Both the position numbers and the translations under genes were made by a program. The notes beneath the pieces are model-generated. The model saw only the letters and a list, made by a program, of their open reading frames with translations, had not been told where the DNA came from and did no database searches. Shown here piece after piece: positions 511-45,455 of a stretch of DNA of 47,145 nt. Where the stretch lies: positions 1 through 47,145 of IMG/VR virus record IMGVR_UViG_3300050187_000010; one strand, written 5' to 3'. The DNA is from a virus. Position 1 is the first letter of the stretch, and every line of letters starts with the position of its first letter.

Positions 511-552
511 CTTGATTGACTCCGCGCGGATATTCCGGTTAAATACTCGCGC
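511..552 (+). promoter_or_regulatory. Composite promoter copy A (TTGACT-17-TTAAAT with two CGCGCG-type boxes)
   Basis: CTTGATTGACTCCGCGCGGATATTCCGGTTAAATACTCGCGC. The -35 is at 516-521 and the -10 at 539-544. It lies upstream of the first + strand gene. Confidence 0.55.
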
Positions 553-586
553 ACGAACGTGGCAACACACCAGGAGATCTCTCACA

Positions 587-2874: not shown

Positions 2875-2910
2875 TTGACGTGCGCGGGTATTCCATGAGA
2901 TAATCCACGC
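2870..2910 (+). promoter_or_regulatory. Composite promoter copy B
   Basis: CTTGATTGACGTGCGCGGGTATTCCATGAGATAATCCACGC. It has the same architecture as copy A and overlaps the stop codon of the HAD gene. Confidence 0.5.
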
Positions 2911-2942
2911 ATGAAATTGCAATTAGGGTTAGAGGTCTAATT

Positions 2943-3227
2943 ATGTCTGACAAAATTAGAGTACTCCGTATCCTTGAATACGTTGGGGAACGAGCAGCAG
3001 TTGAAGCTACACTCTCGAATTCAATCTACGGTGAAAAAACTTTTCAACAGCATATAGCAGGCCGTCACCTCGGCAGCGTTACAATACGCGCAGCAACTCT
3101 AGGCAATTTCCCGGAAATCTTAGAAAAAGCAAAATGCCGTGCTACAGCGGTAAACCCAGATTCTGAGTTAGAAGGTTATTGCTCTTTGCCGTACGATCAT
3201 TCTGGCCCCCACGACTTCGGGTTTTAG
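2943..3227 (+). CDS. Hypothetical protein
   Basis: 94-aa ORF downstream of promoter B with an AGAGG Shine-Dalgarno sequence. Confidence 0.5.
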   Translation: MSDKIRVLRILEYVGERAAVEATLSNSIYGEKTFQQHIAGRHLGSVTIRAATLGNFPEILEKAKCRATAVNPDSELEGYCSLPYDHSGPHDFGF

Positions 3228-3232
3228 CCATC

Positions 3233-3580
3233 ATGTCCTCAGGTCGCCCCCAAAAAATCCTTCGCCCAACTGCGCTCAACACAGTAATCCCTGAGGATCT
3301 ACGTGCGAAGCTCGACTTACACTTGTTCAGCTCGGTTGAAAACCGCATCCCTCACGGGGCTTATAGCAAGTTTATCACTGAGCTGTTGCAGAAGTTTTTC
3401 GAAGGCGGAGTAACAGAGCGAAATCCTAACCTAGCATTAATAGACCAACATGGGCTAAAAGCTCTTGGTCTGTTAACCAAAATCGCGCTAACTGATCTTC
3501 GCACAGGCTGGTCTGCTGACCGCATCACCGAAGTCGTCCGCGAGGCTCGCGAAATCACTGGAAAGGTGCCCGTGAAATGA
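3233..3580 (+). CDS. Hypothetical protein, possible ribbon-helix-helix DNA binder
   Basis: ATG at 3233. The N-terminus (LNTVIPEDLRAKLDLH...SKFITELLQKFF) looks like an Arc/CopG-type strand-helix-helix. This is weak. Confidence 0.4.
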   Translation: MSSGRPQKILRPTALNTVIPEDLRAKLDLHLFSSVENRIPHGAYSKFITELLQKFFEGGVTERNPNLALIDQHGLKALGLLTKIALTDLRTGWSADRITEVVREAREITGKVPVK

Positions 3581-3804
3581 TCGTTCAAAATCCTGAACTA
3601 CTCAACCGTATCGCTGAGTGGCGGCGCAAGGCTACTGACGGCACGATCAGTCTTGAAGAAATGCGTGAAGCTATTAAAGTGCTGCGCGAGAACCGAATCA
3701 GTGCAACGGCTGAAGCAGCAAAACCAAAGTCTAGCAGGGGCAAGAAAGCTCCAGTCACCCCAGTTGACGCCGGAGATCTGCTTGATCAACTAAAAGGGCT
3801 TTAA
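3577..3804 (+). CDS. Hypothetical protein with C-terminal VDAGDLLDQLKGL tail
   Basis: ATGA overlap with the previous gene. Basic linker KPKSSRGKKAP followed by the VDAxxLL tail. Confidence 0.55.
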   Translation: MIVQNPELLNRIAEWRRKATDGTISLEEMREAIKVLRENRISATAEAAKPKSSRGKKAPVTPVDAGDLLDQLKGL

Positions 3805-8471: not shown

Positions 8472-9794
8472 ATGGCTCATATACTTTCGATCAAAGTCGA
8501 AGACATTCTCATCCCCAAGAATCGCCAGCGAAAAGAATTTATCCCAGAAGATCTAGTTGCTCTTGCGGGATCGATCTCACAAAACGGCTTAATGCATCCA
8601 GTCGTCATCCGCCGAGAAGACCACAATATCATGCTGGTTGCAGGCGAACGCCGTATCAGAGCGCTGCATTATTTGTGGAACTTCGGCGAACAGGTCAGTT
8701 GCGGTACCGCTCGTTTTAACGAAGGAACAGTCCCCTGTATCGATTTTGGCGAACTCGACCCCCTGACAGCGAAGGAAATGGAGCTTGAAGAAAACATCCG
8801 TCGAGTTGATCTAACCTGGCAGGAAAAGGCAGCGGCGACAAAAGAACTAATTGATCTCCGCCGCGAACAGGCAAAAGCCAACGGCACCGAACCCCCAACT
8901 GTCGATACTATAGCTAAAGAGGTCCGAGGAGAATCCACTAATGCCAGAGATAAAACCCGCAAGGAACTTTTGGTCTCAAATTATCTGGAAGATCCAGAAG
9001 TAAAAAAAGCTTCAACAGTTGATGATGCTTTTAAATTACTAAAACGCCGTGAAGCCTTAGCTAAGAACGCAGAACTTGCTGCAAAGGTCGGCGCGACTTT
9101 TAATTCTTCGGTTCACACACTTATTCAGGGGGACGTCTTTGAACAGTTGCCAGAGCTTGCCTCGGGAACTTTCGACGTTATACTCACTGACCCTCCCTAT
9201 GGGATTGATGCAGATAAATTCAGTGATTCAGGCGGCCTTGCGGGTGCAGGAAACACTGGCAGCCATTTCTATAACGATTCCTGGACCTACTGGAATAAAC
9301 TAGCAAAATTCCTCGCCGCCGAATCGTTTAGGATCTGCAAACCCCAAGCCCATGTCTATGTATTTTGCGACGTGGACAATTTCGTCCTGCTTAAAAGTTT
9401 CTTCATTGAAACAGGCTGGCGTGTATTCCGCACTCCTATAATCTGGGTTAATCCAACAGCAAATCGAGCGCCTTGGCCAGAACACGGCCCGCGGCGTCAA
9501 TATCAAATCTGCATGTTTGCTGTTAAAGGAGATCGCCCTGTTACAAAGGTAGTTTCAGATGTCCTTACCTATTCGTCGGACGAAAATCTCAACCATCAAG
9601 CGCAAAAACCAGTGGCTCTTTTTCAAGACTTACTTGTGCGCTCAGTCAGCCCTGGAGACTCAGTACTCGACTGCTTTGGTGGGACGGGCACGATATTGCC
9701 AGCTGCGCATGCTCTTAAATGTCGAGCAACGTATATCGAACGTGACGCTGCAGCTTATGGAACAGCGATTAAAAGATTAGGGGAATTGGAATAA
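8472..9794 (+). CDS. ParB-like nuclease domain fused to beta-class N6A/N4C DNA methyltransferase
   Basis: N-terminal ParB box (LVAGERRIRAL). DPPY motif IV (ILTDPPYGI) precedes motif I (VLDCFGGTGT), which is the beta-class order. Confidence 0.85.
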   Translation: MAHILSIKVEDILIPKNRQRKEFIPEDLVALAGSISQNGLMHPVVIRREDHNIMLVAGERRIRALHYLWNFGEQVSCGTARFNEGTVPCIDFGELDPLTAKEMELEENIRRVDLTWQEKAAATKELIDLRREQAKANGTEPPTVDTIAKEVRGESTNARDKTRKELLVSNYLEDPEVKKASTVDDAFKLLKRREALAKNAELAAKVGATFNSSVHTLIQGDVFEQLPELASGTFDVILTDPPYGIDADKFSDSGGLAGAGNTGSHFYNDSWTYWNKLAKFLAAESFRICKPQAHVYVFCDVDNFVLLKSFFIETGWRVFRTPIIWVNPTANRAPWPEHGPRRQYQICMFAVKGDRPVTKVVSDVLTYSSDENLNHQAQKPVALFQDLLVRSVSPGDSVLDCFGGTGTILPAAHALKCRATYIERDAAAYGTAIKRLGELE

Positions 9795-12356: not shown

Positions 12357-12401
12357 TCATTGAATAACTCGCGCAAATAATCCCCCGGAATATCCACGCA
12401 C
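12357..12401 (+). promoter_or_regulatory. Degenerate or variant copy F of the composite promoter motif
   Basis: TCATTGAATAACTCGCGCAAATAATCCCCCGGAATATCCACGCAC aligns to copies A and C. It has 5 extra nt between the -35-like and -10-like hexamers, so function is doubtful. Confidence 0.25.
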
Positions 12402-12421
12402 AAAACGGATCTATTAAACTT

Positions 12422-26697: not shown

Positions 26698-26790
26698 GAA
26701 ACGATCTCCAATGAACTACCTACTAGGGGAGACCCTCCGACAGCTCCTCGACCACGAGCCAATAGGTAGCAGTTGTGGATAGTCGAGATT

Positions 26791-26836
26791 CTCGCGCGGA
26801 TATTTAAATGGAATACCCGCGCGAGAAATCAATCAT
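26791..26836 (-). promoter_or_regulatory. Composite promoter copy E (minus strand), internal to the late arm
   Basis: The reverse complement reads ATGATTGATTTCTCGCGCGGGTATTCCATTTAAATATCCGCGCGAG. It lies between the capsid gene stop and the beta-helix gene. Confidence 0.5.
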
Positions 26837-26850: not shown

Positions 26851-27771
26851 TCAGGGCCCGTTCGACCCATAAATACCTCGGGCATCAGTATTACCTACCG
26901 ACAGCCGCATGTAAGTCGAGGCTTTAGCATTCTTCGTATCGAAGTCGTTGTCCTGGTCAAAAATCGGCCTATCTCGCCAGAACATCTGCATGCCATTAGG
27001 GCAATTAGTTCTGACATACCAGGCTCGTGGAGCAGTAAAAAAGTGGCACATCTTAATGCCCTTAGGCAGAGCATTAGTCGCGCGCAGAACGTTGAGGTTG
27101 TTGTTAGCGGTGTCAGACTGCAGCACACTCTTTAAGATGCGATTAGCATTCCACCATTCATTCGGAGCAACATGCAGAGACTGCATCATGAACGAGACTT
27201 TCAGTCCACGGTCGTTCTGCGCCTGCATGATCTGAATACCCATGTCTTCGATGGAGGTTTCAGTCAAGTCAGCCGCAGGTGAAAGGGCATTGGACCAAGT
27301 CCCACCGGTTGTGTTTACATGAGCAGTAGAGATCAGAGTCTGACCATCAGCACTCAAGAAAACAGCACCGGTGAAGGCGTCGTTGTAGACCGCAGCTGCA
27401 ATGTTTTCGACAGTCTGATTAATCGAAAAGGCATTAGCCTGGACCCGGCTGCGAGAAACCTTTTCATAAAGGTTATCGCGCAGCTCTTCAAAGGTCACTT
27501 TGTAACCCAGGGCATAAGCGATATGCGTGTAGCGCTGAGTTGGACCCTGAACCTCGCTATCGTAGCTGATCGAAGCACCTTCAGCCTTTGCTGGGGCGAG
27601 GCCGAAGCCAGTGATCTGGGTGTCCTCCTCATAGGACATTCCAGAATCCATAATGTCGTAGAGGTCTGGGTGTTCCTGCGGATGTGCTGCGTAGACCTGG
27701 CCCCAAAAAGCATGTACACCGGGCCACAGGGCCTTGGGGTGCGAACCGGTATTGATGACGCCGCCTGGCAT
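26851..27771 (-). CDS. Major capsid protein (HK97-fold type, no delta domain)
   Basis: 306 aa with a strong AGGAG Shine-Dalgarno sequence, downstream of the scaffold-like gene. The sequence character is typical of capsid proteins. This is recognition only. Confidence 0.6.
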   Translation of the reverse strand: MPGGVINTGSHPKALWPGVHAFWGQVYAAHPQEHPDLYDIMDSGMSYEEDTQITGFGLAPAKAEGASISYDSEVQGPTQRYTHIAYALGYKVTFEELRDNLYEKVSRSRVQANAFSINQTVENIAAAVYNDAFTGAVFLSADGQTLISTAHVNTTGGTWSNALSPAADLTETSIEDMGIQIMQAQNDRGLKVSFMMQSLHVAPNEWWNANRILKSVLQSDTANNNLNVLRATNALPKGIKMCHFFTAPRAWYVRTNCPNGMQMFWRDRPIFDQDNDFDTKNAKASTYMRLSVGNTDARGIYGSNGP

Positions 27772-30628: not shown

Positions 30629-30875
30629 GTGCCTCGTTTAATTCCTCTGGGGTCAGATCAATCAACTGGTCCAGTACCCGAATTTGCGCAATGGCTGCAG
30701 CATTAGCTTCAGCAGTACGTTGCACAGTATCGCCCTGAAACATCCCACTAGACCACTGCAGCCTCAGCATTTCCTTCCAGCGCCTCAGCAGCTGGTATAC
30801 CTCCTTCGTCACCGGGTCCACCTTCCAAGCCTGGAATTCCTCCGGCGGCACCGGGAAGTGTAGTTTGATCGACAT
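30606..30875 (-). CDS. Hypothetical head-module protein overlapping the portal 3' end
   Basis: 89-aa ORF with a globular-looking sequence. It overlaps the portal ORF by 128 nt in another frame. Confidence 0.45.
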   Translation of the reverse strand: MSIKLHFPVPPEEFQAWKVDPVTKEVYQLLRRWKEMLRLQWSSGMFQGDTVQRTAEANAAAIAQIRVLDQLIDLTPEELNEALEDEQQI

Positions 30876-32919
30876 CTAAATTACCTCCAATTTCAGTTCC
30901 ACTACCACCACTTTGAACCTGCCCTAAGGCAGCTATACGATCGTTAATTGCCTGGTTGTGTGCTTGTAGTGCGCTAAGAGCCGTCTGCAGATAGGTTAGT
31001 TGAGTAGCTGCTTCAGCCTCGTCAATTCCTGCGACTGTGGCCGCAGCTTTAGCCTGCAGATCAACGATCTTAGCCGTGTTGAGCCGCTTTTGCTCCATGA
31101 GTTCAGCCATCCAACGCAAGCGCTCTTCTTCAAGTTGAAGTCTTTTAACCTGCAATTGCATTTCAGCAACAGCAATCTTGGGGTTCGGCGGCGCCGGGAC
31201 TTTGCCAGAGCCTGGAAAATAACGATCAATTGCTTCGACTCGCATAGCTTTAAGAAACTGGCGTTCGACGTAGTCGATGTCATAGCCAGGAACCTGCTGC
31301 GAAGCCTGACGAATAGACTGTGCCTGGAAAAACTTCATCGAGAACGAAGTAATGTTTGGGTCGGCTGTTGGGACTACTTGATCAGCTGAAGATAAATAGT
31401 CCTCGCGGCGAGCACCTTGCCCCTCGCCGAATTGAAAAGTTGCAGGTAGATAAATAGCATTGAGACGAAAGAGCTTTTTAAACTCCGATTTCATCGCACG
31501 CCAGAGTCGTTTGAAAATGGTACTGAAAACCTGCATGCCTTGCTCCAAGGCGTTGCGCGAGGTCTCCGCCGGGGTGTTTTGGCCTGGAGTTTTGCCGATC
31601 ATAATCTCGGTAGTAGCTGCTACACGATTGGTGTAGTCGATCAGCAAGCTCAACAAGTTGAACAAAACTGTAGAAGGCTGGCGGTCAGGAAATGGCACGA
31701 CGTTTTTACGAAGGTCATCACCTGTTGAATCAACTCTAACCCATTCCCAGGGGGCCATTGAATACTGGCCGCCACGGATCTTTGCTCCTCGACCCAGAAA
31801 ACCCCCTATAGAATTCTGCATTGTGCCACTGTCAAGCAGCTGGTTAATCGAAGTATTAACAGATTCGTTCAGGGGGCCTAACAAAACACCGAAGCCGATA
31901 TCATAGATGCCGCCGTCAGGCGAAGGAATAAAACCATACTTGGTAAAATATTCTGTCGCGTTGATACAGATTACTTCACCTGCAGCATTACGCTCGATTT
32001 GTGTTTCGTTATCCCAGCGAGCAACAATACGAACAACGTCGCGAGAGGTTTCTTCGATGGTGACGATATAAGGTTCGGCGTAGCCGTCGCCATCAAGATC
32101 AAGCGTCCGGTGTTGTTCAAGAAACCTAAAAGGGGTGTCCTGGTCGGGCGGCGGTGGCCGAATTCCTTGACGATTATCGCGCTCTGCCTGAGACGAAACA
32201 GCAGAAGCTGGAGATGCTGCCGGAGGAACAGAAGCTTTATACCAATCGCTCTCTAAGACATCTCGAAAGACCCCTCGACGAATTCTTTCGTAGATATCGT
32301 TGCGGAATAGGGAAATTCTATGCGTCTTGCGCTGGCAGCTTTCTACTGACTTCGCATAGTAGTCCATGGTCAAATCGCGAGCTTGGACTAATTCACTGAC
32401 ATTATGCCCTAGCTTGCCGTCGTAATAGGACTTTACAAAGGCAGTCCCAACAATGGCGTCGCTGATGAACAAGCGATCATGCTGCTCTTCCCAGGGTTCG
32501 TCTTCTTCAAGCACCTGCCATGACATATGGGTGCTGATACGGTCAGCACGGGCAGTCAATGCGCCAGTAGAATCATTGCTAGGCACACGGCAGCGAACGA
32601 TATCTGTACCGCTGATGATATTTGAATAGGCACGAGAGCTGAACTGCAAAGCAGCAATGGTGATCAAAGGAAAAATCACATTTGAACAGCCCTGCCAGGG
32701 CCAGTTCTTGTCACGAAAAATCTGCAGAGCAAAGTTCATTCCGGCTTCGTTTCGGCGCAGCCAATCTGCACGAGAAGACTCGTCTGCCTGATAGCCTTCG
32801 TAAACTAATTCACCGATAGCAGTTAAGTCTTCGGCAGTAAGGCGCCCTGCTAAATTAGGCGCCTTCATTGTTTCGGCGTCTAAGCGAATACGACGAGACA
32901 GTTCTAAGCGAACAGCCAT
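30748..32919 (-). CDS. Portal protein
   Basis: 723 aa, starting 4 nt after the TerL stop. It has a Gly/acidic C-terminal tail. The call is by size and position. Confidence 0.65.
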   Translation of the reverse strand: MAVRLELSRRIRLDAETMKAPNLAGRLTAEDLTAIGELVYEGYQADESSRADWLRRNEAGMNFALQIFRDKNWPWQGCSNVIFPLITIAALQFSSRAYSNIISGTDIVRCRVPSNDSTGALTARADRISTHMSWQVLEEDEPWEEQHDRLFISDAIVGTAFVKSYYDGKLGHNVSELVQARDLTMDYYAKSVESCQRKTHRISLFRNDIYERIRRGVFRDVLESDWYKASVPPAASPASAVSSQAERDNRQGIRPPPPDQDTPFRFLEQHRTLDLDGDGYAEPYIVTIEETSRDVVRIVARWDNETQIERNAAGEVICINATEYFTKYGFIPSPDGGIYDIGFGVLLGPLNESVNTSINQLLDSGTMQNSIGGFLGRGAKIRGGQYSMAPWEWVRVDSTGDDLRKNVVPFPDRQPSTVLFNLLSLLIDYTNRVAATTEIMIGKTPGQNTPAETSRNALEQGMQVFSTIFKRLWRAMKSEFKKLFRLNAIYLPATFQFGEGQGARREDYLSSADQVVPTADPNITSFSMKFFQAQSIRQASQQVPGYDIDYVERQFLKAMRVEAIDRYFPGSGKVPAPPNPKIAVAEMQLQVKRLQLEEERLRWMAELMEQKRLNTAKIVDLQAKAAATVAGIDEAEAATQLTYLQTALSALQAHNQAINDRIAALGQVQSGGSGTEIGGNLDVDQTTLPGAAGGIPGLEGGPGDEGGIPAAEALEGNAEAAVV

Positions 32920-32923: not shown

Positions 32924-35398
32924 TTAGTATCCTGTTACTGGAGAACGCCCGTCGCCGCCGCGACGCATGGACTGTGATAACATGACTTCGCGAAGTTCGT
33001 CGTCAGTAAGCTGGTCGTCGTCTTCCACTGCTACTTCTTCAAGGCCAATTACCAGCCAAGCTGTTGAATCAAATTGATCATCAGCAAGGGCTTCGGCGTC
33101 GGCACGGAATAGCAGGATTTCAGCCTCATATTCCTCGTACCACTCAGCGTCCTTGTCAAACCGCATTGAACCAGCACGAGAACGCTTTTGAAACGGCCGA
33201 CCACGAACAGCCTTGTCCTTTACCGGCATGCGAGGTTCTAGGTTGAGGTAAACGCCGCGCTCTCGCATTTCGCTGCGTAGAATAGGTTCGAGGGTCTTCC
33301 AGATCACGCCGTCTTCGACGTAGAAGGTGAAGTCGTTTAAGTCGTCAGCCCAACGTTTAGCAATGTCAAAGAATTTTTCAATCACCTCAGCACTATGCCA
33401 ACGGCCAACATGTTGATCTTCGATGCAGATAGTGTTGTCGAGGCACTTGCCGCCGATAGTAAAGGAAGTGCGATTAGCGGTGTCGTCTTTAGAAACAGCA
33501 AAGTCAACACCGCAGCCCCGGCGTTTGAACTGGCTGCGATAATCGACTTCGATTAAGTTATCATGAACGTCCTTGGTGGTGAAGATCATTGGCAGCATAT
33601 CATCTTTACGAATATACTGCTCTTCATTATCGCGAGGATCGTTAAGGTATTCCTGAGAATATCCCGCAGCATCGCCTTCGGCTACGAATTCTCGCTGAAT
33701 AGCGCTAAGGCGGTCAGCAGGGAATTTCTCTGGCCACAGAATCTGAGTGAAATCGTTAAAGGCTCGATGGGCCTTGTACTTGCGGGAGTGCCAGGCTTTG
33801 TTTTTGATTAAGTGGTTTAGCAAAGAGTCTTCATGCAAGATAGTCCCATGAACCCGAATCCGCCCGCCATCGCGAAGGGCTTGTTTGCAAGCCCTGAAAA
33901 ACCAGCGCCGAAACTTGCGTCGGCGGTCTTTATTTTCGACCTGTTCATCGTCTTCTAGGTCATCACAGACGATCAGCCCAGGACGCTTTCCACGCCATTT
34001 GCGACCGCGGATCTTTTGTTCAGCTCCGCGAGCAATGATTCGAAACTGGTGGCCGTCGACGCATTCAATGACGATGTCGGTTTTCTGCTCGGTGCAGAAA
34101 TCCTTGATCTTGAAGTCGCGGCGTAGATCTTCGTTCTCGCGAAGCTCGTTAGCGATATCACCAAGATGTTCAATGGACATCTCTTCTGAAGCTCCAACGA
34201 GAATGACATAGTCTTCCTGGCGGAAACAGACATTAGCCAGGATAAAGTCGTGGGTCAAGCCTGTGCTGTTGTGAGTAAGCAAAAAATCTTCAGTCACATA
34301 AAGACCGTCTTCTGCTGCAACTGTAATACAACGTGAAGCTTCTTCACCAACATAGTCTATTGCTGTTATGCTGAGTCGTTCGTTGTTACAGCCTTTCCAT
34401 AAAGCTGCCTTTCTGTGCAACCTAAAAGGACACAAATCCTTTGGTAATTTAACCGACACTCTGTAAGAAGTTTGTGTCGCGCCTTTTGCAGACTTAGTTA
34501 TAGAAACTACAGCTACGCCGCCGAGGCTACGCACAATAAACACCACGGCTTCAACAAGATTTTCGTTGGTGTTGCAGAAATAAGCAATCTTACCGTCTTG
34601 GTGAACAGTCCCATCGGTGTCCATCAATCCCTGTAGCAGGGCCAGACGTTTAACTGGAGTGTCAACCAAATACAACGCAGGTACAAATTTATTATTCAGC
34701 AAACCCGCTGCCTGAAGTCTATCTCTAAAACCTTCTGGTTTGTATAGATAACTTCCAGCTTGTTTAATAACAACACAGTCAAACCAGTTGAATATCTCAG
34801 GATCAGCAGAAGTTATTCGTCCATCAGCCGCGTGGCCATCGCCAAGCCACACACCAAGCATATAGGCTGGAATATCAAGTTCCTCTCCATGCTCGAAAAA
34901 GCAAACAGGCTTGCAGAGCGGCAAAAAAGCTCTATATTCAATGTAGCCATTCGGCTTTTGCGCAAAAGCTTTAAGTTTTAGCTCCTTTAATGAAAGTGTT
35001 ATTAGCCTTTCACCTGTATTGCTGGGGATATACACAGACCACAGATGTTCATCGTTGCACAAAACAGCCCGTTCGTCTTTTGTTTCCAGTCTGTAAGTTG
35101 GCTGAACAGCAATAGGGTGTAACTGTGTTACTCGTGTGGCATGCCCATCGCTGCCAATAACAAAATCACCAACCGATAGTTCTCCAATTGTTGTCCATCC
35201 AGTAGGAGTCAGCACTTTGGTTTTCAGCGGCTGTGCTTTTGCGTGATTTCTGGGAGCCGCGGTAGCACATGCAGGATAATCGCTGCAGTAACGATTCCAA
35301 CATTCACGGTGGAAGTCCGGCGTTGGCTGAGGCGCGTCGTAACGGGGGCTGAGATAAACCCCCGCAAAAGCCTCGATCATCTCAGCGGTGAGCTTCAC
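32924..35398 (-). CDS. terL: Terminase large subunit, interrupted by an intein (mature ~501 aa)
   Basis: The P-loop AAPRNHAK|...|STGL is split after Lys54. Walker B is RPGLIVCDDLEDDE. The C-terminal part is nuclease-domain sized. GTG start. Confidence 0.85.
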   Translation of the reverse strand: MKLTAEMIEAFAGVYLSPRYDAPQPTPDFHRECWNRYCSDYPACATAAPRNHAKAQPLKTKVLTPTGWTTIGELSVGDFVIGSDGHATRVTQLHPIAVQPTYRLETKDERAVLCNDEHLWSVYIPSNTGERLITLSLKELKLKAFAQKPNGYIEYRAFLPLCKPVCFFEHGEELDIPAYMLGVWLGDGHAADGRITSADPEIFNWFDCVVIKQAGSYLYKPEGFRDRLQAAGLLNNKFVPALYLVDTPVKRLALLQGLMDTDGTVHQDGKIAYFCNTNENLVEAVVFIVRSLGGVAVVSITKSAKGATQTSYRVSVKLPKDLCPFRLHRKAALWKGCNNERLSITAIDYVGEEASRCITVAAEDGLYVTEDFLLTHNSTGLTHDFILANVCFRQEDYVILVGASEEMSIEHLGDIANELRENEDLRRDFKIKDFCTEQKTDIVIECVDGHQFRIIARGAEQKIRGRKWRGKRPGLIVCDDLEDDEQVENKDRRRKFRRWFFRACKQALRDGGRIRVHGTILHEDSLLNHLIKNKAWHSRKYKAHRAFNDFTQILWPEKFPADRLSAIQREFVAEGDAAGYSQEYLNDPRDNEEQYIRKDDMLPMIFTTKDVHDNLIEVDYRSQFKRRGCGVDFAVSKDDTANRTSFTIGGKCLDNTICIEDQHVGRWHSAEVIEKFFDIAKRWADDLNDFTFYVEDGVIWKTLEPILRSEMRERGVYLNLEPRMPVKDKAVRGRPFQKRSRAGSMRFDKDAEWYEEYEAEILLFRADAEALADDQFDSTAWLVIGLEEVAVEDDDQLTDDELREVMLSQSMRRGGDGRSPVTGY
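34268..35236 (-). mobile_element. Intein (323 aa) with LAGLIDADG homing endonuclease, inserted in the TerL Walker A motif
   Basis: It begins AQPLKTKVLTPTGW (block A with Ala1). Block B is NDEHLW. LAGLIDADG motifs are LGVWLGDGHA and LLQGLMDTDGT. Block F is SRCITV. It ends LLTHN followed by Ser. Confidence 0.8.
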
Positions 35399-37409: not shown

Positions 37410-38180
37410 CTAAGTCACAGGCCACTGCAAGCCAACAGTATTAACCAGCAGGCCATTTAACAGGACTGAAACATCCACATCGTTGTGGCTGACAGAATTC
37501 ACACGAACTTCCAGGGTAGCCTTTTCGTTAACTACTATTCCGCCGTTGACGTCGATAGGGACGCCTGGTTCGCTGATGGTGAAATCCAAGCCAAGCAATC
37601 TAACACCTGTTGCGAGATAGACGTAGGCGGCGATGGTAGCTGACACGCCGGGCCCACTACCACGGCCGACTAGGTAGTTAGTGCTGGATAACAGCAAGGA
37701 ATATCCAGCTGGAATAGTAAAGGAAGCTTGTCGAGAAGCTGAAGTAGCCGGGGCGATGTTTGCCCGGGCGGCGCCTCCACCAGCAACTTGAATAGTCAAG
37801 CGCCCAGCGTTAGTTTGCCCTGAGCCAGCTGATATAACGAGCGTGGATTGATGTCTGAAGCAATTTGCCGCTATTGCTACTGGCGTAGTGCCATTTAGGG
37901 CTACGACGGCAGACTGCAAAATGAATTCGTCGTCGAGATAAGTGATTAATGCACTGCGTGCTCCAGTACCAGCAGCTGCGTCAGCAGCATCGTCAGAGAC
38001 AATTTCCCAAGATTCTTCCCCAGCTGCAAATAGCTGTAACAGGTTATTCGAGCCGATAGTTAAAGGGGGTTGAACAGTTTGAATATCTGCTGCCCGCGCA
38101 GCCATTACAAACTCGCTAACGCCCTCGACGAGGCCCAAGCGGCCTGCTAGGTCGAAGTTCTGTGGAAAGGAAATACCCAT
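37410..38180 (-). CDS. Hypothetical structural-like protein
   Basis: 256 aa and beta-rich. SDDAADAAAGTGARSALITYLDDEF...ALNGTTPV is a conserved phage pattern I recognise but cannot name. Confidence 0.45.
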   Translation of the reverse strand: MGISFPQNFDLAGRLGLVEGVSEFVMAARAADIQTVQPPLTIGSNNLLQLFAAGEESWEIVSDDAADAAAGTGARSALITYLDDEFILQSAVVALNGTTPVAIAANCFRHQSTLVISAGSGQTNAGRLTIQVAGGGAARANIAPATSASRQASFTIPAGYSLLLSSTNYLVGRGSGPGVSATIAAYVYLATGVRLLGLDFTISEPGVPIDVNGGIVVNEKATLEVRVNSVSHNDVDVSVLLNGLLVNTVGLQWPVT

Positions 38181-38195
38181 GGCAAGTAACAGTAA

Positions 38196-38408
38196 TCAAT
38201 AACCGCCGTATTGTCGGCCCTTGACAGATGACTTGCGGCGAGGCATTTTGTCCATTGGGTCTCCGCCGAGCTGCGCGCGCTGGCGAATCGGCTGGGCGTC
38301 GGTGGGGGGTTTCTGGCCCTGGAGATCTCCGCCTGGGCTGACAGTAGTTGAATACCGCTGGCCTGTAGAACCGGCGGAGCCCATTGGCCGCGAGCGATGG
38401 ATAGACAT
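38196..38408 (-). CDS. Small basic protein
   Basis: AGGAG lies 9 nt upstream of the ATG. GC-rich. Confidence 0.45.
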   Translation of the reverse strand: MSIHRSRPMGSAGSTGQRYSTTVSPGGDLQGQKPPTDAQPIRQRAQLGGDPMDKMPRRKSSVKGRQYGGY

Positions 38409-38414
38409 TTGAAG

Positions 38415-39083
38415 TTACTCCTGGGTAAGAGCAATAGCGAGGGCTGTGTCGGGCTTGGATTCGGCTAGAGACTCAACAACAGTAACAGCCTCAGCTTCTC
38501 GCTTCTTCCGCTGCAGCAGCTGCACGAGCCCTCCACCTAGCTGTTCGAGGTGGATGTTGACTTCAACTGGGGTTCCACCAGGCAGAGCTGTTTCCTTCGC
38601 TCCATAGCCTGCAGCTCGTGCGCCGATTTCCGCCGCTCGCAAGGCGAGGTTGTCTGAGATTGCAATCGCAGGACGATTCAGCTTCTGCAGCAATACATCC
38701 AGCGAACGCGAGACCAGGGCCTTGAAGTTATCTTCCACCGTGCGCTGCAGCACGGGATCGATCATTTCCTCACGCCGCTTGGCAAAGGCGGTTTGAAATG
38801 CGTCACTGACCATCACCTGGGAGACCCAGGCGGGCGTCAAGCCAAAATGCCGGGCGATTTCGTTCTGTGAAATCGCAGGGTTAGCCAGAATCAGGTCAAT
38901 CATTGCCTGGTGATTGTAGGCGACCTTTTGAATCGCCCCGCGCTCGCGAGAACCGCTCGCAAGAGGCTTGTCCGTGTCCATGCCCGTAGCAGCAGGGCTA
39001 GCCGCCTTCGCCTCTGCGAGCAGTTTGGCTAGTTCGGCGTCAGCGCCAGGACTAAGATCAACTTCAACTTCAACTGCGCTCAC
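38415..39083 (-). CDS. HTH DNA-binding protein (candidate small terminase or late regulator), first gene of the minus arm
   Basis: GTG start 8 nt after AGGAG. HTH-like ISQNEIARHFGLTPAWVSQVM. The function assignment is speculative. Confidence 0.5.
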   Translation of the reverse strand: MSAVEVEVDLSPGADAELAKLLAEAKAASPAATGMDTDKPLASGSRERGAIQKVAYNHQAMIDLILANPAISQNEIARHFGLTPAWVSQVMVSDAFQTAFAKRREEMIDPVLQRTVEDNFKALVSRSLDVLLQKLNRPAIAISDNLALRAAEIGARAAGYGAKETALPGGTPVEVNIHLEQLGGGLVQLLQRKKREAEAVTVVESLAESKPDTALAIALTQE

Positions 39084-39130
39084 ATTCCAAACTCCTGGCT
39101 GTTAAAGCCTAGCCACCTAGCCCTCTCCCG

Positions 39131-39162
39131 CGCGTTTTAACCCGGCGGCGCCGAGCTGTCAA
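39131..39162 (-). promoter_or_regulatory. Candidate sigma70-type promoter for the minus-strand arm
   Basis: The reverse complement reads TTGACA-16 nt (GC-rich)-TTAAAACGCGCG, related to the composite promoter family. Confidence 0.4.
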
Positions 39163-39510
39163 CCCCCTTTCCACCAAGATATGCTCAACTGGAGGCCGAA
39201 GCGCCCAAAGCGCCCGAAGCACGAAGCACTCTCGGGCGGAGCCGGAGCCCCGCGCGGATAATCGGGAGGAATATTCGAGCGAGGATTAGAGGATTATGTG
39301 CGTGGAAAAGTAGAAGGGAGAGAAAATGGGAATGGGGCTTTCTCCCGCGCGCGAGCGCAGCGGATTTTTCCCCCCCAGGGGGTATGGGACCCAAGGATTT
39401 AACATAATTCAGATGATGACGAGAGCACAACAGCCGAGAGACCAATGGTGTGGGAGCAACAGGCTGGCGGAGATGTGGGGGTTTGGCAACGCGGCTGGAC
39501 GGATTCGAGG

Positions 39511-39561
39511 GTGACAAAAATTGTCACAATGTGACGGTCACAATGTGACCAAAATTGTCAC
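39511..39561. promoter_or_regulatory. Operator array: six GTGAC/GTCAC half-sites with symmetric 7-3-1-3-7 spacing
   Basis: GTGACaaaaattGTCACaatGTGACgGTCACaatGTGACcaaaattGTCAC. It contains two adjacent GTCAC-AAT-GTGAC palindromes. Confidence 0.6.
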
Positions 39562-39673
39562 GCTGGAGGAGTTGTTCAGGTTCGAGTGAGCAATGGCGCG
39601 GGGCCTGCAGCTGGCACGGGGGTTGCATGTAATTGGTGGGCGCCAATTCGGCGCGGCGGAGGAGAACTCTCTC

Positions 39674-39901
39674 ATGACACACACACGCAGCACACGCACC
39701 GGACCGGTCTGGAATCACGCGAGAAACGAGCCAGCCGTGGAACAACCCTCGTTATGGGGCTGGGCCATTTCGTGGAACCCAGACGATGGCCGATGGTACG
39801 TTGACTGGCCAGATGACCGCGGGACGCGGATCACGTTTCGCGAGCGGCGTAACCTCGTGCAATGGACGCGGAAGAATCCATTGAATACGCACAATCCCTG
39901 A
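39674..39901 (+). CDS. Trp-rich small hypothetical protein
   Basis: The ATG at 39674 follows GGAGGAGAACTCTCTC. Contains WGWAISWNPDDGRWYVDWPDDRG. GC-rich. Confidence 0.4.
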   Translation: MTHTRSTRTGPVWNHARNEPAVEQPSLWGWAISWNPDDGRWYVDWPDDRGTRITFRERRNLVQWTRKNPLNTHNP

Positions 39902-40019
39902 TACCACGGACCACGGGCATTCATCTAGAGTGCCCGTGCTCGGTCGCGATCAGGACCGGTTTCGCGGGCAATTCTGCACGCGGATATTCATGGGCGGCAT
40001 GGCCGCCGGGAGAACTCTC

Positions 40020-40733
40020 ATGACCACGACAACCGATCTGATAAATGCCAATGGACGCGCGGAGGAGCCCGAGGCGGCGCGCGAGGGCGAACCCGGTACA
40101 TCAATGACGGGGGGCGAGAGCACGCCCGACACGGCCGGAGAATCCGCCTCGGGGCAAACCGGCCAATCCCGCGCGAACAATGGCAAGCGCTCCAACTGGA
40201 CGGTCTCGGCGAAGGCAGACATGCAACATCGCACCATTACGTGGACGGTGCGAGGGAGCGACGAACCGCCGCTGGTGCTTGATTTGTCGAAAGTCAGCGA
40301 CGCCAACCGCCTCCGGGCCGAGTATCACGGGTTCACGCAACGCGTCAGCGACGCAGCTGCGATGGCCCGGGACACGAAAACCGGCAAATCGGCGACTCCG
40401 GCGCAGAAACGAATGGCGATGGCGCGGCTGGTCGAGCATTTGAATTCGGGGGCCGTGGAATGGTCACCAGCCAGGGCTGAAGGCGCGGGGCGGACGGTGA
40501 AGGAACATCCGAATGCCGAGTTGCTGCGGATTGCGCTGGGGATTTTTGATCCAGAGAAATCGCCAGAAACCATTGCTCAATTCGTGAGCGAGCGGTCGGC
40601 GGCGCAGATCACGGCGCTGGTGTTGAGCGAGCGGCTGAAAGACGCAATGGAGCTCGCCCGCGAGCAACTGCGGGAGCGGGAGGCGGCCCTGGCAGGGGAT
40701 GTTGATGCGGAAGAGTTGCTGAGAGGGCTCTGA
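40020..40733 (+). CDS. Hypothetical protein, GC-rich paralog of 46319-46966, with VDAEELLRGL tail
   Basis: The ATG at 40020 follows GGGAGAACTCTC. It can be aligned to the 46319 gene through HGFTQRVSDAAA / HGASQKIGDETA, EWSPAR / EWTAKR and the C-terminal tail. Confidence 0.55.
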   Translation: MTTTTDLINANGRAEEPEAAREGEPGTSMTGGESTPDTAGESASGQTGQSRANNGKRSNWTVSAKADMQHRTITWTVRGSDEPPLVLDLSKVSDANRLRAEYHGFTQRVSDAAAMARDTKTGKSATPAQKRMAMARLVEHLNSGAVEWSPARAEGAGRTVKEHPNAELLRIALGIFDPEKSPETIAQFVSERSAAQITALVLSERLKDAMELAREQLREREAALAGDVDAEELLRGL

Positions 40734-40773
40734 AAAGCCCAGGGCGGAGCCCGAGGGCGATCCGAAATCGCTG

Positions 40774-40825
40774 AAATCGCGGGCTGGGCAGCTAAAGCTA
40801 AAAAGTGCCCAGTTCGCGATTTTTG
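40774..40825 (+). terminator. Rho-independent terminator (bipartite stem)
   Basis: AAATCGCG-gg-CTGGGCA ... TGCCCAG-tt-CGCGATTT followed by a T run. Confidence 0.65.
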
Positions 40826-40831
40826 TATGTT

Positions 40832-41117
40832 ATCATCATCATTATCATCATCATCATCACGCGCATACGACCCATTTCCCCTCATCGATATATGTGCGTG
40901 GATAACTACTCAGTGATTGATACCCCCAGTGTGCACCATTTTAGTGCATGTCCAGTCTTAGTCCTTTTTTATTTTTTTTTTTTAATAACTATAGAGAGAG
41001 GAAACTGGGGAGGAAGAGAACTGAGGGGGTTAGCCACTGGGGAATTATCCACGCGGGAATTGACGGGAATGGGAATGGGTTGAATGAGTTTGATAATGAT
41101 GATGATGAAGATGATAT
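40832..41117. other. Origin-of-replication-like region
   Basis: 15-bp inverted arms ATCATCATCATTATC (40832-40846) / GATAATGATGATGAT (41092-41106). Convergent GCGTGGATAA (40896-40905) / TTATCCACGC (41045-41054). T6AT12 at 40965-40983. Polypurine tract at 40993-41029. GGGAAT x3 at 41055-41078. Confidence 0.4.
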
Positions 41118-41323
41118 GCCAATTGAGCAATTCTTGATGGACGACGGGGTTTGAGAGTGGGATAATGAGGGCCGAACGCGAGAACAGGCGCCGAGACATG
41201 AAACCGGAGAGGGAGGGGATGATATCCGACGCTGAATTGGAAACCATATTGCTTGTCGGCTACGGCTACCGCTTCGAGAGAACACACAAATGCATTTCTT
41301 AAAGGATACAGGAGAATAGACAA

Positions 41324-41896
41324 ATGAGCGCAATTATCACGCTAGCTCAACTCAAACGTTTAGGCGCCTGCACAGATGAGACCTCCCAGTTCGAGCGGCT
41401 CTTCGGGAGTTCAATCGAGGTTACTGAGGCATGCTGTGTCCAACATGCCGCTCAATTTGATTGGAACTGGGCGGCCGAGCATCTGCTGAGCCAAGACGCG
41501 TTGGCTGAGTACCAGCGCGTTAGGGCGACTGCGTCGGCCGAGTACGAGCGCGTGATGGCTGCCGCGAGGGCCGAATTCGACCGCATGTGGGCCGCGAGGG
41601 CCGAATACAAACGCGTGCGGGCAGCCGCAAACGCCGAATATCAAAGCACGAGAGCAACCGCGTTCGCACGGTTGTACATTAGAGAGGCAGCAGAAGCAGA
41701 TGCGAGGACTACAGCTGAGACGAAGGCAGCTGAGACGAAGGCAACCGATGAACTCATCCACGCAATCAATGCATATGCCGACGCGTGTCGCGCGGATGAA
41801 GTAAAGGGTGGTGGTGACCCCGCGTCCATACCAGAAATTGAAGCGCGGCTGAAACGCACGCAACAGCAACTTGCGTTTCATATACAGCGTATGTAG
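41324..41896 (+). CDS. Repeat-containing hypothetical protein
   Basis: AGGAG Shine-Dalgarno sequence. Five tandem ~11-aa units (AEYxRVxAxAx). The N-terminus is LKRLGAC...DWNWAAEHLL. Confidence 0.55.
   Translation: MSAIITLAQLKRLGACTDETSQFERLFGSSIEVTEACCVQHAAQFDWNWAAEHLLSQDALAEYQRVRATASAEYERVMAAARAEFDRMWAARAEYKRVRAAANAEYQSTRATAFARLYIREAAEADARTTAETKAAETKATDELIHAINAYADACRADEVKGGGDPASIPEIEARLKRTQQQLAFHIQRM
41507..41668 (+). repeat. Five tandem 30-33-nt coding repeats
   Basis: GAGTACCAGCGCGTTAGGGCG... / GAGTACGAGCGCGTGATGGCT... / GAATTCGACCGCATGTGGGCC... / GAATACAAACGCGTGCGGGCA... / GAATATCAAAGCACGAGAGCA... Confidence 0.8.
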
Positions 41897-41924
41897 CGTC
41901 GTCACAGTTATACACCAGAAAGGC

Positions 41925-42413
41925 ATGACCATGACCTTCCAACGACTAAACACTCGAGCAGCGAAGGCTACTGGTGAAGCAGTAATGGCAATTCGCCAAC
42001 GCTATGCTAAGATGGAAAGCTATCCAATGATTCGACAGGCTCTGGTTGAGGAATTCGGGATTCTATTGTCGATTCAGCAGATCACCAGGATAGCTAAAGG
42101 GTATAGCTTTCCACAATTACCGGGGGCGCCGCCGACTGACCGGGAAGTCGATCTAACCATGGCGGTTAACGCCTGTCGGAGTAAACAGCTGGCTGAAGAG
42201 GCAGCAGCTGTTTCACAGGCAGCTATAGACGCGAGTTTAGCTAAGCTGCAGGGAATGCTAGCTGAGGCTAAAGCTGAGGCTGAAACAGCCCCTGATTATA
42301 CTGCGATCCGCGAACGGACTGAAGCAACTGGAGAAGGGGTTTCCAGGCTAGAGCAGGAGATAGGAAGGTTGAAGGCATCAACATTATCTAAATCTAAGAG
42401 GTTCTCAAAATGA
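41925..42413 (+). CDS. HTH-like DNA-binding protein with coiled-coil C-terminus
   Basis: ATG at 41925 or 41931 after AGAAAGG. Contains IRQRYAK...IRQALVEEFGILLSIQQITRIAKGYSF. Confidence 0.45.
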   Translation: MTMTFQRLNTRAAKATGEAVMAIRQRYAKMESYPMIRQALVEEFGILLSIQQITRIAKGYSFPQLPGAPPTDREVDLTMAVNACRSKQLAEEAAAVSQAAIDASLAKLQGMLAEAKAEAETAPDYTAIRERTEATGEGVSRLEQEIGRLKASTLSKSKRFSK

Positions 42414-44096: not shown

Positions 44097-44135
44097 TTGA
44101 CTCCGCGCGTGTAATCGGGTTGAATATCCGCGCGG
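44092..44135 (+). promoter_or_regulatory. Composite promoter copy C
   Basis: CTTAATTGACTCCGCGCGTGTAATCGGGTTGAATATCCGCGCGG (TTGACT-17-TTGAAT, flanked by two CGCGCG boxes 25 bp apart). Confidence 0.55.
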
Positions 44136-44173
44136 AGTTTTGGCCATTTCATTTACCTAGGGAACTCAAACAT

Positions 44174-45400: not shown

Positions 45401-45440
45401 TCTAATCTAATCTAATCTAATCTAATCTAATCTAATCTAA
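45393..45440. repeat. Perfect pentanucleotide microsatellite (TAATC) x 9.6
   Basis: Counted directly. It starts within the last codons of the helicase (GTA ATC TAA) and ends immediately before AAGAGG, the Shine-Dalgarno sequence of the next gene. Confidence 0.95.
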
Positions 45441-45455
45441 AAGAGGTATCTTAAA

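Follow-up and report, generated by a model that had tools for sequence, protein, structure and literature searches.

The locus at 511–552 of the 47,145-nucleotide viral sequence analyzed here (the window) carries two CGCGCG boxes on either side of a −10-like hexamer, and similar arrangements recur across the window; this raises the question of what the boxes are and which protein reads them. The original prediction was a family of promoters, each with two separate GC boxes. Instead, the paired boxes are the outer arms of one 37-bp imperfect palindrome, not independent boxes, and exactly six copies of this dyad occur in the window. Judged from their sequence and placement, the dyads are most likely the operators of a small phage-encoded repressor; three of them, perhaps four, appear to sit on a promoter, and the others (F, H, and E) appear to be without a good one. 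The six candidate operators and the predicted promoters at A, B, and C are:

520–556, plus strand: operator A, CTCCGCGCGGATATTCCG-G-TTAAATACTCGCGCACGA, 43.5 bits; the next gene starts at 587.
516–521 and 539–544, plus strand: promoter at A, −35 TTGACT, 17-bp spacer, and −10 TTAAAT, with a predicted start at ∼551.
2878–2914, plus strand: operator B, 35.5 bits, heading the operon (2943–3227 and 3233–3580) that contains the RHH-like gene.
2875–2880 and 2899–2904, plus strand: promoter at B, near-consensus TTGACG, 18-bp spacer, and GATAAT, TG-extended (10/12 promoter match).
12367–12403, no strand assigned: operator F, 38.9 bits, between the DNA polymerase gene (end 12351) and the primase gene (start 12422).
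26790–26826, minus strand: operator E, 47.5 bits, the most perfect palindrome among the six; it starts 24 bp past the stop of the major capsid gene (26851–27771, minus strand), and the next gene is 92 bp on.
39248–39284, no strand assigned: operator H, 42.2 bits, in the divergent region between the minus-strand operon led by 38415–39083 and plus-strand genes.
44101–44137, plus strand: operator C, 42.3 bits, before the Dda-type helicase gene (44174–45400).
44097–44102 and 44120–44125, plus strand: promoter at C, TTGACT, 17-bp spacer, and TTGAAT.

The six dyads have identical geometry, and their 12 half-sites give the consensus yCTC-GCGCGG-ATATTCC. In the count matrix of the dyad sites the inner arms (ATATTC/GAATAT) are as conserved as the GC outer arms; each half-site is thus a GC-rich outer box (GCGCGG) plus an A/T-rich inner box (ATATTC), that is, ∼13 informative bases. 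In A, B, C, and E the order is TTGAT/TTAATTGAC, GC box, ATTCC/AATCG, A/T-rich hexamer, and second GC box, and the GC boxes start 25 bp apart (523/548, 2881/2906, 44104/44129, and 26793/26818), which bears out the spacing of 25–26 bp first proposed for A, C, and E; C and A are 82% identical over 50 nt. The pattern GCGCGNNTAWT-N7-AWTANNCGCGC has three matches in the window (0.00 expected), TTRATTGAYNNNNCGCG also has three (0.25 expected), and an unsupervised repeat search of the window independently recovered a 5-copy, 35-nt family (D1). With a position weight matrix, the scan that had been suggested for the genome and its relatives, the six sites score 35–47 bits, the runner-up in the window reaches 8.9, and 30 shuffled versions peak at 9.4; because the matrix was trained on the same six sites, the gap carries more weight than the scores themselves. 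Clustering of palindromes with exactly matching arms proved so strict that even the window's own sites escaped it, and codon-driven repeats swamped the signal in a k-mer enrichment for motifs. All six dyads are wholly intergenic, as compared with 5.2% of 37-mers (probability ∼2e−8, using an ORF-based gene map). Dyad symmetry, a conserved half-site, fixed spacing, and several copies are features expected of a repressor operator.

This description changes the membership of the family. Among the five copies originally counted as strong promoters, A, B, C, and E are as described but the fifth, at 46207, is a separate promoter (D) with one half-site. The supposedly weak copy with an expanded spacer at 12357–12401 is a full member (F) with the same 25-bp spacing; 39251–39285 (H) indeed has no −35 but is not weak, being a full member at 25-bp spacing. 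The minus-strand relative at 39131–39162 is a separate promoter-like sequence (G), and because D and G are without a dyad the idea that the element acts at every promoter fails. Finally, 39969–39990, read as a copy with its −35 deleted, does look like a remnant of a promoter/operator cassette but consists of a lone half-site only. These additional features are:

46207–46247, plus strand: promoter D, TTGACT at 46212–46217 and GATCAT at 46235–46240, with one half-site and the shared −35 block.
46232–46250, minus strand: lone half-site CGTGGCGCGGATGATCGCG, overlapping the −10 of promoter D.
39131–39162, minus strand: promoter-like site G, TTGACA at 39162–39157, 17 bp, and TAAAAC at 39139–39134; dyad absent.
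39974–39991, plus strand: lone half-site CTGCACGCGGATATTCAT preceded by CAATTCT, 15.8 bits in one arm with its partner absent, inside ORF 39930–40733.

The GC boxes around GATCAT in D are just 11 bp apart (not 25), and the counterpart of D in relatives is a promoter and leader conserved separately from the dyads.

The promoters at A, B, and C are sigma70-like and share the block CAATTCTTGATTGAC (at 506–520 upstream of A); their operators end 28–36 bp ahead of the start codons of co-oriented genes, and the 37-mer spans the last −35 bases to past the predicted start, which is not so for F and H. A, B, and C are plausible sigma70-type early promoters. Against a consensus of −35 ∼TTGACA and −10 ∼TATAAT with 16–18 bp between them, B conforms and so does D (TTGACT-17-GATCAT); the consensus scan did not call A and C because TTAAAT and TTGAAT lack an A at position 2. 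E would be a poor promoter because its upstream TTGATT is 19 bp from TTAAAT. No convincing −35 was found for F, and H has none of its own; H is upstream of the leftward site G, with ∼85 bp between its edge and that of the G −35.

Related phages carry dyads at the same places. The capsid, RHH-like protein, and P222 (the 38415–39083 product) of SRR25722115_23413 are 82%, 56%, and 67% identical to those of the window, respectively, and its dyads occupy six positions equivalent to those in the window:

L013:116, equivalent to A.
L013:3534, equivalent to B.
L013:14201–14237, equivalent to F.
L011:4577, equivalent to C.
L011:7937–7973, equivalent to H.
L068:10927, equivalent to E (past the capsid gene).

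The outer box at these sites is CCGTC/ACGTC, as compared with GCGCG in the window, and the weight matrices of the two phages give no cross-hits. The same pattern is found in L015, L016, L069, and L070; the capsids of the close relatives with the same six dyad positions are 82–89% identical to that of the window. Because CCGTC replaces GCGCG in the relatives at every site, the whole site set has changed in concert. The copy after the capsid gene (E), already picked out in the original prediction, is among those conserved in relatives, with the relatives' own half-site sequence. A near-consensus promoter (TTGACA-17/18-GATAAT) with a dyad heads the RHH-like operon in every close relative; in more distant IMG/VR phages a dyad is located ∼1 kb upstream of the RHH-like gene, at the operon head, and other phages with an RHH-like protein have multiple dispersed dyads (three in L047, four to five in L059).

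The window's own version of the operator was not recovered elsewhere. Pattern scans, including IMG/VR and the JGI metagenomes, yielded no second phage with the exact operator: the corrected dyad pattern gave just unrelated single sites (in IMG/VR, three loci, none with the RHH motif), and a stricter pattern gave five loci in the JGI metagenomes, mostly in coding sequence of high-GC bacteria. A scan of Mel-JY34, MW202489, and the IMG/VR primase relatives with the window matrix turned up no dyad, and megablast of 12 kb against GenBank phages returned no close DNA relative; MW202796 and MW202785 have the capsid in common with the window, but their replication and regulation modules differ. A host search in the genome collection gave one uninformative 1.5-kb contig in a Chloroflexus MAG, and a literature search found no account of the dyad element or of Mel-JY34.

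Conservation that extends well beyond the −35 and −10 hexamers points to a dedicated regulator, as had been proposed. The best-supported binder is one of the candidates named at that time:

3233–3580, plus strand: 115-aa protein, candidate binder of the operators, RHH-like over its first 58 residues and predicted to be transcribed from promoter B.

The support for this protein is the covariation of its strand with the outer box, described below, and its operon, which is headed by a dyad; the HTH proteins 38415–39083 and 41925–42413, named alongside it, are set aside because their recognition helices are constant while the operator changes. The family of the 3233–3580 product (628 clusters at 50% identity) is in no family library, and neither Pfam nor PHROGs has a match for the window's member. 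Its N-terminal 58 residues are highly conserved, save for every second residue of the strand (14, 16, and 18); the window has A14, N16, and V18 at these putative DNA-facing positions. The RHH assignment is not statistically established: no family match is significant (sub-threshold matches to RHH_1, RHH_5, or RHH_6 in only 4/128 family members, best E-value 0.005), hhalign aligns it with Arc and Mnt in the expected register but at probabilities <1%, and a PDB sequence search gave no hits. In the AlphaFold monomer, helices at 21–31 and 43–57 (pLDDT 85–89) follow an extended N-terminus, with the strand absent, and a Foldseek/PDB fold search with this model gave no match. A half-site of 13 bp is long for one RHH dimer. 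The GerE, OmpR-type, and ECF-sigma genes of the relatives are absent from the window, where the dyads persist.

Across loci, the outer box tracks the strand residues in three classes, a correlation drawn from few independent lineages. Strands with Asn16 (A14/N16/V18 in the window, Q/P/V-N-A in other loci) pair with GCG(C/T)G(G/A)AT dyads, those with Thr16 (K14/T16/Y18) with CGTC(G/A)AT, and those with Glu16 with CCGGGGAT. Half-sites in the Asn16 loci are 35 Asn-pattern vs 3 Thr-pattern; in the Thr/Ser16 loci the counts are 4 and 18, respectively. In strand and operator alike, the window departs from its close relatives and matches distant Asn-type phages. One locus, L017, is an awkward intermediate, with Q14/T16/T18 and CGTG/GCGG boxes. 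All strand classes share the conserved inner boxes, which may thus be read by invariant residues or may simply be −10 elements.

Our preferred reading, which we regard as probable, is a regulon under an autoregulated phage repressor, by which early transcription is shut down or tuned, with the 3233–3580 product as the binder. From the sequence relationships we infer that this protein binds the dyads, that it represses rather than activates, and that transcription starts where predicted. At A, B, and C the −35 would abut the left arm, the −10 would coincide with the right inner box, and transcription would start in the right GC box; the operator would lie across the core of a host sigma70-type promoter, so a bound protein would exclude RNA polymerase. 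The N-terminal strand-helix-helix (RHH-like) module of the protein would contact the operator, presumably as a dimer of dimers, and because promoter B would drive the binder's own operon the result would be a negative feedback loop. Host polymerase would fire the early promoters, the 3233–3580 protein would accumulate, and early transcription would then be shut down or capped. The same protein may bind F, H, and E as a roadblock or modulator (guesswork for these three), and E probably doubles as an RNA hairpin.

Among the alternatives, a genuine operator with another binder is unlikely; the candidates are a host factor, the two HTH proteins, the 75-aa product of 3577–3804, and the ParB-methyltransferase of 8472–9794. 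The gene at 38415–39083 encodes an HTH and adjoins H, the 75-aa partner accompanies the RHH-like gene in 43/49 loci, the inner boxes that are common to all strand classes could be read by a conserved factor, and the RHH fold of our candidate is unproven. However, the recognition helix of the 38415–39083 product is near-identical (TPAWVSQVM vs TPSWVSQVM) in phages with differing operators, and that of 41925–42413 is likewise conserved. The former, which we set aside, resembles a small terminase: in MW202489 the gene for its homologue immediately precedes that of the large terminase, and the best fold match of its model, although weak, is 2ao9, a nonameric putative small terminase. A host factor would leave unexplained the concerted change of six sites between phages with such similar capsids. 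The 3233–3580 protein might instead bind but serve mainly as an activator or temporal switch, driving a leftward or late promoter from H and acting at E; we regard this as quite improbable because the sites at A, B, and C span −35 to +5, where repressors typically bind, B already approximates the consensus, and ∼140 bp separate the center of H from the predicted G start, far for direct activation. This role would nonetheless suit the position of H, without its own promoter and upstream of G, the position of E within the structural arm, and the imperfect −10 hexamers of A and C, which might need help; RHH proteins such as AmrZ provide a precedent for both activation and repression (PMC3325190).

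Two further explanations dispense with a dedicated binder. That the GC boxes are intrinsic promoter features, a GC-rich spacer and discriminator through which early promoters would respond to host physiology (stringent response or supercoiling), is very improbable: it leaves unexplained the dyad symmetry, the conservation of the left inner box, the sites without a usable −35 (F, H, and E), and the fact that relatives have the less GC-rich CCGTC in place of GCGCG at every site. In its favor, the right GC box falls between the −10 and the predicted start, as the GC-rich discriminator does in promoters under stringent control, and promoter D also has GCGCG/CGCGC around its −10. We give least credence to nucleic-acid structures (RNA hairpins, terminators, or DNA cruciforms) or small mobile palindromic repeats. 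Compared with shuffled sequences, E (a strong predicted hairpin, −26.4 kcal/mol, z −7.2) and C (z −4.4) are clearly stable as RNA, E is past the capsid gene, a classic place for a stabilizing or terminating hairpin, and TTTT follows the E-equivalent site in L069 and L070; against this, B folds only modestly better than shuffles and A, F, and H no better, the arms hold the same sequence instead of compensating, the U-tract of an intrinsic terminator is absent from all window copies, and an Rfam search was empty. What is conserved is the half-site sequence, rather than pairing potential. Mobile repeats (REP/MITE-like) were rejected because all six positions are orthologous in relatives.

The repressor reading, if correct, would provide a regulatory map for uncultivated and apparently very common phages, including their early promoters, their probable shut-off, and the 'hypothetical protein' responsible; homologues of the capsid number >6000 at E <1e−40, with many 47–50-kb contigs. 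More tentatively, the RHH-like family may act as master regulator of transcription in uncultivated podophages that form a very abundant clade, with a specificity code and concerted retargeting. This broader proposal, doubtful as a whole, would combine bipartite operators whose inner boxes double as the −10 in two alternative registers, a code in the central strand residue (Asn/GCGYGG, Thr/CGTC, and Glu/CCGGGG), and regulons that are retargeted whole, with the capsid-side site coupling early shut-off to structural-gene expression. The natural protein/operator pairs comprise three or more specificity classes on a scaffold that is otherwise conserved; this makes them a compact system for the joint change of repressor and site specificity, and they could yield orthogonal pairs of repressor and promoter for use in synthetic biology.

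Gp53 of Pseudomonas phage PhiPA1019 is, like our candidate, an early RHH DNA-binding regulator of a lytic phage, but its reported targets are host genes, the virus is unrelated (94 kb), and a phage-wide operator set is not described there (PMC13650114). As gene control the proposed circuit is tidy but conventional, and the general understanding of phage regulation is unaltered. In the virulent phage phi29, as proposed here, early-made proteins (p4/p6) bind and shut early promoters and affect late transcription; however, they have another fold, their sites are clustered in one control region, and they act by bending DNA and contacting the alpha subunit of the polymerase. The dispersed, mostly intergenic sites of P1 C1 and the stoperators of mycobacteriophage L5 gp71 are similar in that one repressor serves several units, with some sites away from promoters; these sites are asymmetric (17 bp and 13 bp, respectively) and maintain lysogeny, whereas those in the window are palindromic and just six, so we rejected assignment to this asymmetric class, and no integrase or lysogeny module was seen in the window. 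The omega protein of pSM19035 is an RHH protein that acts at several promoters through multi-part operators, and NikR demonstrates that an RHH tetramer can recognize half-sites separated by two helical turns; however, omega uses arrays of 7-bp heptads, NikR requires a metal-binding tetramerization domain, and neither has the −10-like inner boxes seen here. The similarity of the 3233–3580 product to P22 Arc/Mnt is not significant and its inter-helix loop is longer, but FNFRMPMEV of Mnt is in register with the strand motif h-N-h-x-h-P-x-E/D of its family. Arc and Mnt are small autoregulated RHH tetramers on dyad operators over a sigma70 promoter (Pant/Pmnt), as we propose here; they control one divergent promoter pair from 17–21-bp operators, whereas the window has six 37-bp bipartite sites spread over 47 kb.

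The family of sites is best described by its symmetry. When all CGCGCG-like hexamers are listed, the GC-box starts are exactly 25 bp apart at A, B, C, and E, four of the five strong promoters in the original prediction, which had paired CGCGCG boxes bracketing the −10. The predicted motif sequences are present where they were placed, and their architecture is corrected: the flanks read as inverted repeats, so each site is an imperfect palindrome of 37 bp, with 18 nt on either side of a central base, and is one of six members of a palindromic operator family. The copies at 12370 and 39251 (F and H), ranked as weak, are indeed family members but are full dyads with the same 25-bp spacing.

Copies of the 37-bp dyad located by the matrix scan
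520-556: copy A
2878-2914: copy B
12367-12403: copy F
26790-26826: copy E
39248-39284: copy H
44101-44137: copy C

The half-site from the twelve arms is y-C-T-C-G-C-G-C-G-G-A-T-A-T-T-C-C, with G5, C6, T12, and T15 invariant and G7, G9, and A13 present in 11 arms. The six sites score 35.5-47.5 bits, the best 37-mer beyond them scores 8.9 bits, and the maximum over 30 shuffled genomes is ≤9.4; the matrix was trained on the same six sites, and it is this gap, not the scores, that counts. The top direct-repeat family of an untrained repeat finder consists of five of these sites, and a loose IUPAC dyad pattern has 3 matches (0.00 expected). All six dyads are wholly intergenic, against just 5.2% of the genome's 37-mers (chance about 2e-8). 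Folding the sites as RNA separates E (−26.4 kcal/mol, z −7.2) and C (−23.1, z −4.4) clearly from their shuffles and B marginally; A, F, and H fold no better than shuffled sequence, and the arms retain one sequence with no compensating changes. Because few sites fold well and the arms do not compensate, the dyad points to a double-stranded DNA site that a symmetric protein would read; site E, past the capsid gene, may additionally serve as a hairpin.

Other sites first grouped with these proved different. The supposedly strong copy D (46207-46247, +) has the shared −35 block but a single half-site; its GC boxes flank GATCAT 11 bp apart, and it aligns with a separately conserved promoter-plus-leader of relatives. 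Site G (39131-39162, −) is a different promoter-like site (TTGACA-17-TAAAAC) with no dyad, and 39969-39990, proposed as a truncated copy, does contain a half-site, though a lone one with no partner arm. In segment 46212-46318, promoter D (TTGACT-17-GATCAT) leads into about 70 nt of leader sequence kept in the related loci L011, L015, and L016 (...TGAATGCGGGGA.TC.GG.AATCGCCC.C.AATAGGATGCCA...); this leader precedes a widely conserved 215-aa early gene (46319-46966) and may act in cis as a regulatory 5′ UTR.

The window is a phage genome in which bases 1-99 are repeated at 47047-47145, giving a unit of 47,046 bp that is either circular or terminally redundant; the exact 99-bp duplication could reflect overlap in a circular assembly or short direct repeats at the termini. 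The sequence comes from Logan assembly SRR9729087.

Main features of the genome
0.5 to 13.6 kb (+): ThyX, PD-(D/E)XK nuclease, AAA_24 ATPase, ParB-methyltransferase, family-A DNA polymerase, DUF3987 primase
− strand: converging structural arm, including the next three genes
26851-27771 (−): major capsid
30748-32919 (−): portal
32924-35398 (−): large terminase
39.3 to 47 kb (+): second early block, including a Dda-type helicase

Searches of the window for an integrase, RNA polymerase, tRNA, or Rfam element were negative. The closest named relatives, all distant, are Microcystis phage Mel-JY34, the Manatee Spring viromes, and 119X/PaP2-like Pseudomonas phages; the capsid has >6000 homologues at E below 1e-40, many on 47-50-kb contigs, and the phage is therefore a member of a large uncultivated group.

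Several other elements were observed. The G+C content of 38000-42000 is 0.56-0.575 (about 0.49 elsewhere) and its ORFs are weak or doubtful (e.g., 39326-39514, 39593-39901), so this segment may be recently acquired or may be a control region that is largely non-coding. Just past ORF 39326-39514, the segment 39515-39565 contains the 13-bp palindrome GTCACAATGTGAC twice in tandem (39523-39549, 100% match), with more ATTGTCAC half-sites on the flanks; it resembles a second operator set with no relation to the first. An inverted repeat of about 290 bp at 40830-41115, with arms of (ATC)n / (GAT)n that are 45 nt long and 80% complementary, a non-coding centre, and operator-like half-sites GCGTGGATAA at 40896 (+) and 41054 (−), is a candidate for an origin of replication or a site of packaging; a structure of this kind also occurs in a relative (L011:6210-6628), with a T-run and a TATATATA centre. 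A perfect (TAATC)x9.6 array lies past the helicase gene (45393-45445), and the relative has (CAACA)n at the matching position (L011, reverse strand, near 2380).

The dyad can be distinguished from the promoters that it overlaps. Directly left of the dyad, A, B, and C have a common 15-16-nt block, CAATTCTT(G/A)ATTGAC; read as sigma70 promoters, the last 2-3 nt of their −35 (TTGACT/G) lie within the left arm, the right inner box is the −10, the predicted start is inside the right GC box, and the start codons are 28-36 bp past the dyad. B is near consensus (TTGACG-18-GATAAT, TG upstream); A and C have 17-bp spacers and −10s (TTAAAT, TTGAAT) without the usual A at position 2, and were not called in a promoter scan. 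Since E is poorly spaced (TTGATT 19 bp from TTAAAT) and F and H have no −35, the dyad is separable from the promoter; three copies, perhaps four, appear to be on promoters and the remainder off them. Several A/C-type promoters of relatives place the −35 some 12 bp farther upstream and use the left inner box (GATAAT/AATAAT) as −10 (TTGACA-17-GATAAT), and locus L059 has both registers within one genome. The putative operator thus provides two −10-like boxes, 12 bp apart, and the core promoter or start region would be covered in either register.

Identical 17-mers, CCAGGAGATCTCTCACA (570-589, 882-898), directly precede two early start codons, and in relatives (L013 intergenic regions) GGAGACTCTCAC is found ahead of several early genes, a conserved, putative translation-initiation leader. 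An ECF-like motif, GGGAAC-N16-CGTC, occurs just upstream of the dyad in the more distant phages L034, L041, L047, and L055; in close relatives, CTCTTGGTTGAC...CGTC is compatible with sigma70 and ECF-like readings alike.

Using homologues of P222 (the product of 38415-39083, −) and of the protein encoded by 3233-3580 (+), we reached full-length relatives in Logan assemblies. Contig SRR25722115_23413, with a capsid 82% identical, has the same 37-bp architecture at the same six places.

Dyads of contig SRR25722115_23413
L013:116: ahead of the first early genes
L013:3534: ahead of the operon with the 3233-3580 homologue
L013:14201: between polymerase and primase
L011:4577: in the helicase region
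L011:7937: in the divergent control region
L068:10927: directly past the capsid stop codon

L015, L016, L069, and L070 are alike; in all of these relatives, SRR25722115_23413 included, the inner boxes (RATAWTC ... GAWTATY) and spacing are kept, and the outer box is CCGTC/ACGTC, not GCGCG. In a cross-scan, each phage's matrix finds no site in the other. Such concerted change of six orthologous sites is expected when a binder acquires a new specificity and its sites are altered to suit; the site after the capsid gene is the most telling, as a mere hairpin would not need each phage's own half-site. Judged from sequence, the feature is real and probably functional, and the earlier suggestion of a dedicated regulator stands.

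Pfam and PHROGs searches identify no regulator in the window. The recognition helix of the P222 HTH hardly varies between phages whose operators differ, so we set P222 aside as the binder. Its homologue in MW202489 (L005:557-1111), annotated ‘cyclic nucleotide-binding domain’, is immediately upstream of the large terminase. The best, though weak, fold match of the P222 model is 2ao9, a nonameric putative small terminase; P222 is probably a packaging protein of the small-terminase type, about 3 kb from the window's terminase gene. The HTH protein of 41925-42413 was also set aside, its helix being likewise conserved; it is present in few relatives.

The 115-aa product of 3233-3580 fits better than either HTH protein. 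Its gene would be transcribed from predicted promoter B, and in every relative a promoter bearing the dyad stands at the head of the operon with its homologue, an arrangement that implies autoregulation. The gene is part of a conserved block of the replication module (49 fetched loci), together with a 75-aa partner, the PD-(D/E)XK nuclease, AAA_24, ParB-methyltransferase, polymerase, and primase. The 75-aa protein (3577-3804), encoded immediately 3′, co-occurs in 43 of these loci and may work with the regulator or modulate it. In close relatives, genes for GerE-type HTH, OmpR-type winged-helix, and often ECF-like sigma proteins surround the homologue (L013:3221-5909, L015:9594-11220, L016:8972-11604); none of these is in the window, although the dyads are kept.

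The first 58 residues of the protein are highly conserved except at alternate positions of an N-terminal stretch (invariant among close relatives: R11, P20, E21, D22, A25, L27, D28, H30, L31, S33, E36, R38, P40, G42, A43, Y44); this stretch followed by two helices (AlphaFold 21-31, 43-57) is an RHH-strand pattern. Hhalign places it in register with Mnt FNFRMPMEV, at nil significance, and A14/N16/V18 are presumably the counterparts of Arc Q9/N11/R13 in that register. Positions 14/16/18 covary with the outer box: A14/N16/V18 in the window, and Q/P/V-N-A in L034, L041, L046-L051, L053, and L055, accompany GCG(C/T)G(G/A)AT; K14/T16/Y18 accompanies CGTC(G/A)AT; Glu at position 16 (L059, L040) accompanies CCGGGGAT; and L017 is intermediate (Q14/T16/T18 with CGTG/GCGG). 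Among these loci, which are phylogenetically non-independent, half-sites number 35 Asn-pattern vs 3 Thr-pattern with Asn16, and 4 vs 18 with Thr16/Ser16. At 50% identity, the family forms 628 clusters, 183 of them with E ≤1e-10; its members are all small proteins that carry the domain N-terminally. Sub-threshold RHH_6, RHH_5, or RHH_1 matches occur in 4 of 128 members, and no other DNA-binding fold recurs among the 128; therefore, we use the label ‘RHH-like’ for what is a putative fold.

In the mechanism that we propose, host polymerase would initiate at A, B, C, and the dyad-less D, and the RHH-like protein would build up from B. From binding onward, we infer that a dimer of dimers fills the 37-bp sites and keeps polymerase off A, B, and C, closing a negative feedback loop; when bound at F, H, and E it may stop transcription from reading through or affect promoters nearby, and E may in addition stabilise the capsid transcript or terminate it.

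That a different protein binds the dyad is unlikely; the constancy of their recognition helices where operators differ argues against both P222 and the 41925-42413 protein. The same binder might instead act as an activator or switch, for which we see a somewhat slimmer chance. The GC boxes could also be clamps intrinsic to the promoters, or the dyad a nucleic-acid structure or mobile repeat; the former is very improbable and the latter is the reading we credit least, as the concerted change is hard to explain by promoter composition, a hairpin, or a mobile repeat. A hairpin is further opposed by the phage-specific half-site after the capsid gene and by the poor folding of A, F, and H with non-compensating arms.

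For the predicted RHH-like circuit, the closest models include Arc/Mnt of P22, RHH tetramers that bind promoter-overlapping dyads and are autoregulated, the dispersed regulons of P1 C1 and L5 gp71, the RHH global regulator omega of pSM19035, and the phi29 p4 early/late switch. An early RHH factor that acts on host genes was recently described in a lytic Pseudomonas phage (PMC13650114). The circuit in the window differs from these systems in its long bipartite half-site, in inner boxes usable as −10 in two registers, in an operator copy after the capsid gene, and in an RHH-like family with no entry in Pfam, PHROGs, or the PDB; in kind, the predicted circuit is still a phage repressor-operator regulon.
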